From a virus (lineage: Duplodnaviria; Caudoviricetes): a DNA stretch of 64,000 nucleotides. Below are positions 60,055 through 62,675 of the stretch, piece after piece. Every line of letters begins with the position of its first letter. Position 1 is the stretch's first letter. Where the stretch lies: IMG/VR virus record IMGVR_UViG_2754412319_000001, positions 15,344 through 79,343 of that record. One strand, written 5' to 3'. The notes under the pieces were generated by a model, which saw only the letters and a list, made by a program, of their open reading frames with translations, was not told the origin of the DNA and did not search any database. The translations under genes were made by a program, and so were the position numbers.

Positions 60055-60486
60055 TTGAAGCGAAACTTTCTTCGGGTCGGCGACTACTCGTCGTCTGGTG
60101 GTGTTGTTGTCGATGGCATCCCATCCACGAGTTGCTATGGTCGAGAACTAACTTACATCGGCGCAAAAGTAACCTGTCCGGCTTGCAAACAGCTTGGTGT
60201 CATCGTCGCCGAGGGGCCGCGATGGCCGGGCGAGATGATGGGGCATCAGGCCGCTCTGGAGGGGGACAGGGTTGCATGCGGGTGCAGCCCACGGCCGTCG
60301 ATGATTGCTTCGCAAGACACCATGTATGAGAGCTTTGAATCGCAGCAGCTTCTCGGGATGGGTTTCGCCGCAGACGGCGGGCGGATGGTGCTTGATTCTG
60401 GTACACCGAAGCCGTCGCAGGGCTTCTGTCTTTCCTGCATGCTTGCTGCCGCCAAGAATGCTGCGTCAATGGTCGTTCGTGGGTGA
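60055..60486 (+). CDS. PAAR-domain protein with C-terminal extension
   Basis: RVGD.SSSGG.V, GAKVTCPAC, ALEGDRVACGC; TTG start after GAGAGGG. Confidence 0.9.
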   Translation: MKRNFLRVGDYSSSGGVVVDGIPSTSCYGRELTYIGAKVTCPACKQLGVIVAEGPRWPGEMMGHQAALEGDRVACGCSPRPSMIASQDTMYESFESQQLLGMGFAADGGRMVLDSGTPKPSQGFCLSCMLAAAKNAASMVVRG

Positions 60487-60492
60487 CGCGCC

Positions 60493-60990
60493 GTGAGCAT
60501 TCAGGTCATTTTCTCTTCATGGCAGGCGCGCGCCAGCCTTCCGCTCCGTCTATTCGCGCTCGCGGATGGTCTGCTGTATTCAGAATCAAGCGGTTCACCA
60601 CCAGTGCGCTCAGGTGAATCAGCGATGGCGCTACTTGACGGAACCCCTGACGCGTCGCTTGCCGATGCCGGCCCGTGGTTCTTCGACTACGAGCAGACGA
60701 ACAGCACGACGCGCGATGCGTTGACGCGCATGGCTCAAGGCGAATACGGGGTGAACTGGATCATCAGCGCCTATCAACCACGCATGCTCGCGAACGAGCT
60801 GCGCGAACGACTGGATGCCACATTGCCGGACGGTAGGACGGCAATGCTGCGCTTTTACGACGCGCGCGTGATGCGGTACTTCGCGCCAGCGTTGAATTCG
60901 ACGGAGCGGACTATGTTCTTTTCCCCTACGTTCGACTGGCTGATCGAGATCGATGGACAGCTATTTAGGGCGCACCCCCATGCCGCTTAA
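60493..60990 (+). CDS. DUF4123 T6SS effector chaperone (TecT-like)
   Basis: LFALADG, AGPW, LPDGRTAMLRFYDARV. Confidence 0.9.
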   Translation: MSIQVIFSSWQARASLPLRLFALADGLLYSESSGSPPVRSGESAMALLDGTPDASLADAGPWFFDYEQTNSTTRDALTRMAQGEYGVNWIISAYQPRMLANELRERLDATLPDGRTAMLRFYDARVMRYFAPALNSTERTMFFSPTFDWLIEIDGQLFRAHPHAA

Positions 60991-61450
60991 TCTCACACCC
61001 GCCCATCTTTCCGCGCTCGCCACAGGCGAGGCCCGAAACTTCGTTGACGGCGTGCGTCGCGATCTGATCAAGGCTGACCCCACGTTAGAGCAGGACATCG
61101 ATCTCCACAATCGATTGTGGGAGGCGTATCAGGCCGCGCGCGCGCTCGGGATTCAGGATAGCGAGCACCTTGTTCAGTTCCTGAAGGTTGAGGCATATTC
61201 GCCGAGCTTCTACGCGAAACCAGCGGCGCGTGCTTGGCTGACCAAGCCCGGTCGAAGTGCCGATGAACGCTTTCACGTCTACGTCCAAGAAGTCACTTGG
61301 CGATCACAACATCCAGATAGCTTGAAAGGAGTCCCGCATGGCAGCACCGTTAATTCCCCTAGTTACGGCCGTGGCGGCGGAAGTGGGACCGGCATTGTCG
61401 GCTATTGGCGGCGCATTACTGGGAGGGGCGGCGGTAGCGGGGATCGGTAG
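60980..61450 (+). CDS. Putative co-chaperone (co-TecT-like by position)
   Basis: Between DUF4123 and toxin; start MPLNLT; 3' end overlaps the toxin gene. Confidence 0.55.
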   Translation: MPLNLTPAHLSALATGEARNFVDGVRRDLIKADPTLEQDIDLHNRLWEAYQAARALGIQDSEHLVQFLKVEAYSPSFYAKPAARAWLTKPGRSADERFHVYVQEVTWRSQHPDSLKGVPHGSTVNSPSYGRGGGSGTGIVGYWRRITGRGGGSGDR

Positions 61451-61949
61451 TATGCGGGGCGATGTCAGCAAGATGGAGGAACAGGCAAAGGCGAAAACGG
61501 AGTCGCGAACAATTTCAGATTCCACCGAGCCTTGCAAGAAATGCCCACCGGAGAAGACCGGCGTGCTTGTGCGAAACAATCATGGCGTCAACTGGCCAGC
61601 GTATCGCTATCAGGCCCGCGTGACCGGCTTCGCGTTTGACACTGAAAACTGTCGATGGAGCGACGAGTGGGAGTGGATGGGGATCGATTTCGACGGGTTC
61701 AGGGCAAATGAATGTCTACTCCAGGAGGCCAAGGGTAACTACGATCAGTTCCTTGACGGGTCGATCCCGAAGGCGGATGAGTTTTTCAAGGGACTGGATA
61801 GGATGGGGGATCAGGCGCGCACTCGGGCAAGGGTAGTCAAGCCGAATCCACCGACCCGGCTGAGGTATTATTTTCAGGGTCCACTGACGTATCGAAAGAT
61901 GTCAAGATTGCTCAGGCTTTTGTCAATCGAGTCCGAATATCTTCCGTAA
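61338..61949 (+). CDS. Tox-REase-5 nuclease effector (TseT-like)
   Basis: Hydrophobic Ala/Gly N-terminus, CxxCP, YQARVTG, DFDGF...LQEAKGNY. Confidence 0.88.
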   Translation: MAAPLIPLVTAVAAEVGPALSAIGGALLGGAAVAGIGSMRGDVSKMEEQAKAKTESRTISDSTEPCKKCPPEKTGVLVRNNHGVNWPAYRYQARVTGFAFDTENCRWSDEWEWMGIDFDGFRANECLLQEAKGNYDQFLDGSIPKADEFFKGLDRMGDQARTRARVVKPNPPTRLRYYFQGPLTYRKMSRLLRLLSIESEYLP

Positions 61950-61958
61950 GATACTGCT

Positions 61959-62675
61959 ATGAAATTCGAAGCGATTATTAAGAGTGGAGGGGTCCCTGCA
62001 AAGGACTTCGCTCAAATTTTGACCAAGGCTGGTGCGATCATCGACGTGATGGCGGCAAGCGAACCGGCGCTTGCACGGCCAAACTGGCGGATGAAAGGCG
62101 ATTCTCTCGAAGAGGCTCAGCGTAGCGAAGTCTATCTGGCAGACGGTCATCCAAGTAACACGGCGTTAGAGGCGCTGGAAAGCGAATATCGTGGTGACAC
62201 TGGGTCCACCGTTGGGATATGGGATGGGGGTGCCGTCGATGCTGTTGGGGCGTCGGTAACGGTTTTTGCATGTGGTGGAGATTTCCCTGACACGGTCACG
62301 ATCGGCGCACGGGGTGCTTTTTCCACCAGCATGGCGCTTGTTTCCAGTGTTGTGAAGCAACTGGTGCTGGAATTTGCGCCGGCTGTCGTTACAGCCGCAC
62401 CCGAAGGTTACGAGGAGCAGCAAGCATTCGACGACCGCCCCGGTGTAGGTTGGATGCTGTATCTCCCTGTCGAGCTTACCGCTCAACAAATCCCTGAAGC
62501 GCAGGAACTCATCCCAGTCTTTTCCACTGACGGTAAGAAGCGGCTCGGGACAATCCTCGTCAGCATCAAGGGCGAGGTGTTTTCGGTCGACAACGAGGAG
62601 CATCTGGCCGTGGCGCATAACATCGAGGCGCGACTTATATCTATGGACCTATTGCCGCTTCTTGGCGAGATATAA
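61959..62675 (+). CDS. Imm52-family immunity protein (TsiT-like)
   Basis: Directly after toxin; DRPGVGWMLYLP..LT..QIPEA..LIPV...GTILVS. Confidence 0.85.
   Translation: MKFEAIIKSGGVPAKDFAQILTKAGAIIDVMAASEPALARPNWRMKGDSLEEAQRSEVYLADGHPSNTALEALESEYRGDTGSTVGIWDGGAVDAVGASVTVFACGGDFPDTVTIGARGAFSTSMALVSSVVKQLVLEFAPAVVTAAPEGYEEQQAFDDRPGVGWMLYLPVELTAQQIPEAQELIPVFSTDGKKRLGTILVSIKGEVFSVDNEEHLAVAHNIEARLISMDLLPLLGEI

Follow-up and report, generated by a model that had tools for sequence, protein, structure and literature searches.

The closest described counterpart of the locus reported here is the PAAR4-TecT-co-TecT-TseT-TsiT operon of Pseudomonas aeruginosa (PA3904-PA3908; Burkinshaw et al. 2018, via PMC11925235 and PMC11582642), a chromosomal orphan locus. 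TecT and co-TecT are a split DUF4123 protein of which TecT is the conserved lobe; the binding partner of TecT is a C-terminal extension of its PAAR protein, and that of co-TecT is the effector TseT (PMC11582642). TseT requires PAAR4, the chaperone and the co-chaperone (PMC11925235). [quoted passage not shown] Here we describe a five-gene cassette at positions 60055-62675 of a 64,000-nucleotide stretch of phage DNA (the window), which is the right-hand 64 kb of the 79,343-bp IMG/VR provirus record IMGVR_UViG_2754412319_000001. We consider it likely that these genes form a self-contained module for T6SS effector loading, of the PAAR4/TecT/co-TecT/TseT/TsiT type, carried as non-essential cargo of a temperate phage inside its attachment (att) boundaries. 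The Ralstonia and B. gladioli clusters likewise combine a spike or tip gene with effector and immunity genes as moron cargo; they differ in being VgrG-linked lipases or other toxins, or a PAAR/VRR-Nuc set, and none is described as a split-adaptor Tox-REase-5 system. No description of the TecT/co-TecT/Tox-REase-5 type in phages was found in the literature searched. The principle that phages carry T6SS effector clusters is already published, and the present case is a clean new example, not a new principle.

The cassette comprises five genes on the + strand and adjoins the integrase gene. The features of the region are listed below with coordinates in the window, strand, description (lengths in amino acids, aa) and basis; ORF denotes open reading frame.

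59957-60054, +, leader and left edge of the mobile block (blastn edge; alignment of nine upstream regions)
60055-60486, +, PAAR protein, 143 aa (Pfam PAAR_motif PF05488, E 9e-13)
60493-60990, +, ORF2, predicted TecT-like adaptor, DUF4123 N-lobe only, 165 aa (Pfam PF13503, E 4e-22, whole profile)
60980-61450, +, ORF3, putative co-TecT-like co-adaptor (no Pfam family; structural match)
61338-61949, +, Tox-REase-5 effector, 203 aa (Pfam PF15648, E 4e-34)
61959-62675, +, Imm52 immunity protein, 238 aa (Pfam PF15579, E 1.5e-8)
62694-62721, no strand, perfect 12-bp stem-loop (inverted repeat; fold energy -25.7 kcal/mol, z -5.1)
62729-64000, -, P4-type tyrosine integrase (Pfam Arm-DNA-bind_3, Phage_int_M, Phage_integrase)

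The carrier is a temperate, siphovirus-like Burkholderia phage of 79 kb, and its nearest isolated relatives at the DNA level are the Achromobacter phages JWF and 2-1 (~82 kb). The left arm (- strand) encodes the large terminase, portal, major capsid protein and a 1951-aa tape measure; the right arm (+ strand) carries primase, helicase, PolA-type polymerase, ATP ligase, SbcCD, MazG and ThyX. The last phage-type genes before the cassette encode a DUF2528 protein and then a 110-aa ORF ending at 59798, which a 256-bp gap separates from the first cassette gene. An earlier note, made from the letters of this stretch, had claimed five co-oriented genes of less biased codon usage between the last phage gene and the integrase, no T6SS core genes, and a match to the P. 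aeruginosa operon. All of this is borne out. Coordinates and strand agree, Pfam families are assigned to four of the five genes with ORF3 as the fifth, and the cassette is flanked by the replication and nucleotide module upstream and the P4-type integrase downstream. The GC content at third codon positions is 0.62-0.68 in the five cassette genes versus ~0.75-0.9 in neighbouring phage genes. TssC, Hcp and VgrG/gpD families have no match anywhere in the 79-kb record. The likeness to the operon extends over gene order and domains and includes ORF3, which in the model described next takes the place of the missing C-lobe (PMC11925235, PMC11582642).

The assignment of the two central genes carries much of the argument. 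Full DUF4123 adaptors are usually 220-350 aa long (PMC11582642), and ORF2 with its 165 residues covers the N-lobe. A sequence search of the PDB gave no match for ORF2. Its AlphaFold model (predicted local distance difference test, pLDDT, 86) aligns to residues 13-186 of Tap3 (PDB 9r8g_B) with Z 13.8, and Tap3 is its only structural match above Z 2. ORF3 had no match in Pfam, NCBIfam or PDB sequence searches. Modelled from an 18-sequence alignment, it forms an all-helical domain with a core of ~112 aa (pLDDT ~90 over residues 20-100), beyond which the tail is disordered. Residues 6-108 of the model align to residues 199-302 of Tap3 (PDB 9R8G chain B) with Z 8.9 and a root-mean-square deviation of 3.1 Å over 102 residues; the second-best structural match has Z 3.4. 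Foldseek by itself gave E 1.5 for ORF3 against Tap3, and the match became clear only after re-alignment. Sequence identity of Tap3 to ORF2 and ORF3 is only 11-19%. Since ORF2 covers Tap3 13-186 and ORF3 covers 199-302, the models present the two proteins as the N- and C-lobe of one DUF4123 adaptor, tiling it end to end. Because the domain is helical, the fold score of ORF3 by itself is moderate; its position and exact complementarity with ORF2 add weight. Tap3, from the Tap3-Tke5 complex of P. putida (PDB 9R8G), is the only solved structure that matches both ORF2 and ORF3; it differs in being one polypeptide, which loads a pore-forming toxin onto VgrG.

The PAAR domain occupies residues 8-78 of the PAAR protein and leaves a 65-residue C-terminal tail (79-143). 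The end of the tail holds the motif CLxC...AA...A....R (C125, L126, C128, A132, A133, A137 and R142), which does not vary among 15 homologues, the most divergent of them at 36% identity. It is probably here that the adaptor would dock. A conserved cysteine pair is found in spike motifs to which DUF4123 N-lobes bind (PMC11582642), and the CLxC of the PAAR tail parallels that pair.

The effector consists of an N-terminus (residues 1-38), a CxxCPP segment and the Tox-REase-5 nuclease domain (88-181). D119, E130 and K132 are invariant in 18 homologues, and their pattern fits the PD-(D/E)xK signature of the restriction-endonuclease fold. The N-terminus is a Gly/Ala-rich hydrophobic segment, conserved as protein across the 18 homologues. 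Met39 is not conserved, and so we place the translation start at 61338, which is preceded by a strong AAAGGAG ribosome site. Sequence relatives of the toxin in the PDB are 7dym_A and 9oz0_B ("Tox-REase-5 domain-containing protein"). The Imm52 protein, whose gene starts 10 nt past the toxin stop, matches 4rho_A at E 2e-53 and is also related to 7dym_B, the Imm52 chain of the toxin-immunity entry 7DYM. Tde5 (JBC 2026 paper) was also considered and set aside, its nuclease fold being a different one.

Compared with the P. aeruginosa operon, the present locus thus shares the five-gene order, an extended PAAR protein, a lobe-only DUF4123 protein, a small separate co-adaptor, a Tox-REase-5 effector and Imm52. 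It differs in being temperate phage cargo in Burkholderia and in the overlap, by 113 nt, of the co-adaptor with the toxin start. Two further phage forms are informative. In the Ralstonia phages RSA1 and RsoM1USA (NC_009382, NC_049432), ORF1-ORF4 encode PAAR, DUF4123, a Tox-REase-5-bearing effector and Imm52, with 29-40% aa identity to the window. This four-gene form lies at the genome end adjoining packaging genes (the portal gene) of a P2-like myovirus, a different slot from the one here, and its 310-aa effector has its own N-terminal domain ahead of a terminal Tox-REase-5; no separate co-adaptor was detected. In Burkholderia phage vB_HM795 (OR990505; PMC11022660) the set of five genes is complete and identically ordered, with 36-50% aa identity. 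This temperate phage was plaque-purified from blood cultures, imaged and sequenced, and the paper makes no mention of the cassette (PMC11022660). It differs from the present carrier as a 44-kb myovirus in which the cassette lies between methyltransferase and lysis genes, away from the integrase.

The position of the cassette relative to the prophage boundaries was worked out with the help of a related prophage. The record was cut at gene boundaries, and its ends are not att sites: it overruns att by ~260 bp into a host gene at the far end, and its other end is the integrase start codon, ~200 bp short of att. The relative lies in a Burkholderia genome (G040); its TerL is 96% identical, its replication module ~90% identical at the DNA level and its integrase 83% identical. 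The G040 prophage is bounded by the perfect 16-bp direct repeat TGGAACATCTGGTCCG, one copy of which lies ~200 bp outside the integrase start and the other 78.9 kb away. Empty sites in more than 20 other Burkholderia genomes have contiguous host flanks whose alignments overlap by exactly 16 bp; in one of these genomes (G044), 870170 is the last position of the left flank and 870155 the first of the right. Two further repeat pairs shared by the G040 flanks (20 nt, 95%) were considered as att and rejected, the empty sites being joined at the 16-bp pair. In the present record the core occurs once, at record positions 260-275 (the far end), and no copy is found in the window with two mismatches allowed. 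The integrase at 62729-64000 is the single PF00589 match and sole tyrosine recombinase of the 79-kb record. By homology, the cassette lies inside the att boundaries of the prophage. No tRNA was detected in scans of the window, of the start of the record or of the flanks in G040; the phage does not use a tRNA site.

Integration takes place at the 5′ end of a ~99-aa host gene, whose residues 2-6 (EHLVR) are encoded by the att core (record 1-300; L061:14960-15040, L062:11885-11965). At the far junction the phage supplies a new start, MQQGSLFKV-, and a new upstream region. The original start of the host gene remains on the integrase side, behind a CTGT-N8-ACAG motif that resembles a LexA box. Integration may thereby uncouple the gene from SOS control.

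The slot between the last replication-module gene and the integrase is a variable cargo slot. In G040 the segment from the integrase to the last phage gene in common is occupied by 1.75 kb of unrelated ORFs for which Pfam gives no family, and an IMG/VR relative (L002) carries the cassette in the same slot. The G040 slot (L061:16420-18170) contains a 331-aa ORF and several small ORFs. The earlier note had proposed comparing related prophages for cassette swapping, and this is what G040, with other cargo, and L002, with the cassette, display. It had also named an att site between 59798 and 60055 as the observation that would place the cassette and integrase on a separate island; no such site is present, as the window contains no copy of the core, the record has a single integrase and att in G040, the closest relative, lies outside the integrase.

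The cassette recurs well beyond this phage. Its toxin gene matches 14 IMG/VR proviruses, of which 13 have an unrelated backbone and share DNA homology with the window from 59957-60013 through 62671-62686. The shared, sharp-edged block of ~2.7 kb comprises the five genes and a leader of ~45-100 bp, with the integrase outside it, and is found in at least three other prophage backbones. Upstream of the block, one backbone group carries P2-like tail genes together with a Dam methylase, and another an endolysin; some proviruses have an unrelated integrase 1-6 kb downstream. No repeats flanking the block were found. In the toxin tree the window and eight other proviruses, representing three backbones, form one clade (support 99/95). 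Identity of L002 (L002:8718-11335) to the window is 98% for PAAR, 94% for ORF2, 86% for ORF3, 90% for the toxin and 85% for Imm52, and a provirus with another backbone (L003) has the same values for the last three genes (86, 90 and 85%). As the identities are mosaic, the last three genes of L002 being no closer than those of L003, recombination inside the cassette is suggested. More distant copies (35-59% toxin identity) keep the gene order in Paraburkholderia, Trinickia, Caballeronia and Achromobacter, where they adjoin housekeeping genes, for instance those for isocitrate dehydrogenase, alanine racemase, a TonB receptor and a chemoreceptor. The module therefore exists in two settings, as an orphan island in chromosomes and as cargo in phages. 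A megablast search of the cassette against the phage collection gave no match, and only protein and distant modes returned any; a search for the Tox-REase-5 family gave no match in 14 control genomes.

Other explanations of the locus have to be weighed against these data. The record stems from a computational provirus call whose ends were set at gene boundaries, the codon usage of the cassette is unlike that of the phage and the block occurs in many genomic contexts; one could therefore imagine that cassette and integrase form a separate small integrative island, satellite or remnant, sitting in tandem to the phage and lumped with it by the provirus caller. We regard this as very improbable. 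It would leave the phage with no integrase, there being one in 79 kb, and the window lacks the att core even at two mismatches. The G040 phage and its related integrase lie within one repeat pair, on which the empty site closes exactly, and the block common to other phages does not include the integrase.

Toxin-immunity pairs can stabilise mobile elements, and export of the cassette effector is itself a deduction, which leaves a slim chance that the module is a non-exported addiction or phage-defence toxin-antitoxin pair with the PAAR and adaptor genes as relics. Relics would decay, yet constraint is clear on the tail motif of the PAAR protein and on the lobes of the adaptor, all five genes are intact and co-conserved from 98% to ~30% identity across Burkholderiaceae and Achromobacter, and the effector retains a conserved N-terminal segment of delivery type. 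It is harder still to credit that the PAAR protein and toxin are virion parts, a tail-tip cap that brings a nuclease into the infected cell. PAAR-like proteins do cap the spikes of some contractile-tailed phages, but the tail module here is of siphovirus type, with the 1951-aa tape measure and no match to a gpD/VgrG-like spike. The cassette is placed beside the integrase, distant from the structural genes, and in chromosomes it adjoins housekeeping genes; an immunity gene next to the toxin suits interbacterial toxins and not virion proteins.

We therefore favour the effector-loading module, and see in the cassette a well-delimited lysogenic-conversion module that is probably functional. The PAAR protein would cap the VgrG spike of the host in the lysogen. 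Its C-terminal tail, through the CLxC motif, would dock the ORF2 protein, the DUF4123 N-lobe, and ORF3, the separate C-lobe, would hold the small effector, probably via the hydrophobic Gly/Ala-rich N-terminus of the latter. This chain of contacts (PAAR tail-ORF2-ORF3-effector) is inferred. The host T6SS would then fire the tip with its load into adjacent cells; there the Tox-REase-5 domain would cut nucleic acid, and Imm52 would protect the lysogen and its kin. All four Burkholderia genomes with cassette relatives that were examined encode the T6SS sheath protein TssC (2-5 genes) and Hcp (2-6 genes). That the cassette is fired by the host T6SS against non-lysogens seems to us reasonably probable, though we hold it less firmly than the assignment of the module itself. 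Lysogens might in this way kill non-lysogens, and loss of the prophage would become costly, which would stabilise it.

Several points weigh against the effector-loading module as set out here. The integrase-side att copy of this prophage falls beyond the end of the record, and that boundary is taken from G040, whose integrase is 83% identical. The Z of 8.9 for ORF3 is under the level at which helical folds are safe by score alone, and the link between ORF3 and co-TecT is a structural and positional one drawn from a predicted model. A consensus scan called no canonical sigma-70 promoter and no intrinsic terminator for the cassette. A T6SS in the record's own host is presumed from the Burkholderia genomes with cassette relatives, and the papers searched report neither expression nor secretion nor killing for any copy of the cassette borne by a phage.

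A bolder reading can be put forward tentatively, as possible rather than probable. The ~2.7-kb block, promoter-bearing and without a recombinase, may have moved repeatedly between chromosomes and at least five unrelated backbones of Burkholderiaceae temperate phages, acting as a spite-and-addiction device in which the ORF3/toxin overlap may couple translation. Were this true, lysogens would kill non-lysogenic kin by contact, using the T6SS of the host, and the prophage would spread and persist without lysis.

If the effector-loading module operates as proposed, temperate phages would give their host a loadable T6SS toxin together with its antidote, and lysogeny would bring both a contact-killing advantage and a reason to keep the prophage. 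This would matter for how strains of the Burkholderia cepacia complex compete and for the use made of temperate Burkholderia phages. To the published examples the present case adds a precisely delimited module, a cargo slot mapped by att and a structural assignment of the third gene as an adaptor half. It also offers a natural comparison set, in which one phage occurs with or without the cassette and one cassette occurs in different phages. The delimited module, third-gene assignment, att-mapped slot and natural comparisons together make the lysogenic-conversion idea directly testable.

The overlap of ORF3 with the toxin start (61338-61450, 113 nt) places the last 38 ORF3 codons in another frame over the toxin. 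For ORF3 itself the likely start is the ATG at 60980 rather than 60953, because all homologues begin there. Copies from Burkholderia, Paraburkholderia and Trinickia preserve the overlap. Exceptions are Achromobacter and one Paraburkholderia copy, in which ORF3 ends 4-6 nt ahead of the toxin start, and the Achromobacter protein, of 118 aa, is without the tail. The tail is Gly/Ser/Arg-rich and disordered in the model. Because these copies end before the toxin, the 38-codon tail is most simply read as an alternative frame that stays free of stops through a GC-rich stretch coding for Gly and Ala. The overlap may also provide translational coupling, the toxin being captured while it is made. ORF2 and ORF3, or ORF3 and the toxin, were considered as frameshifted single genes and rejected: more than 30 loci keep the ORF boundaries, toxin residues M1-S38 are conserved as protein and M39 is not, and the short Achromobacter ORF3 has no overlap.

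The leader inside the block contains a promoter-like element, TCGACA-17 nt-TATTAG, and the ribosome site GAGAGGG. When nine upstream regions were aligned, TCGAC was invariant, GGTATTAGTCGGA was largely conserved with several invariant columns and GAGAGGGC was almost invariant. TCGACA-17-TATTAG is thus a putative cassette promoter, though not one called by the consensus scan. At the other edge, the hairpin at 62694-62721 occupies the gap where the immunity and integrase genes converge and is not part of the mobile block. Lacking a T run, it was not called as an intrinsic terminator in the scan; it could be a bidirectional transcription stop.

Some of the related loci depart from the five-gene arrangement. 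Tandem toxin/Imm52 arrays or extra Imm52 genes occur in B. multivorans WS-FJ9 scaffolds, P. bryophila and P. phenoliruptrix (L023:1-2162, L033:93-3030 and L035:10500-11891), and in L033 one toxin copy is split in two pieces. In an Achromobacter metagenome-assembled genome (L038:9668-10531) a 287-aa ORF, adjoining a TonB-dependent receptor gene, fuses the first ~90 DUF4123 residues to the toxin domain, and ORF3 is missing; it looks like a deletion derivative. In a Trinickia metagenome-assembled genome (L046:6477-8531) the cassette directly follows an AAA_15/DUF4435 (OLD-like ATPase-nuclease) gene, a neighbour of the defence-island type.

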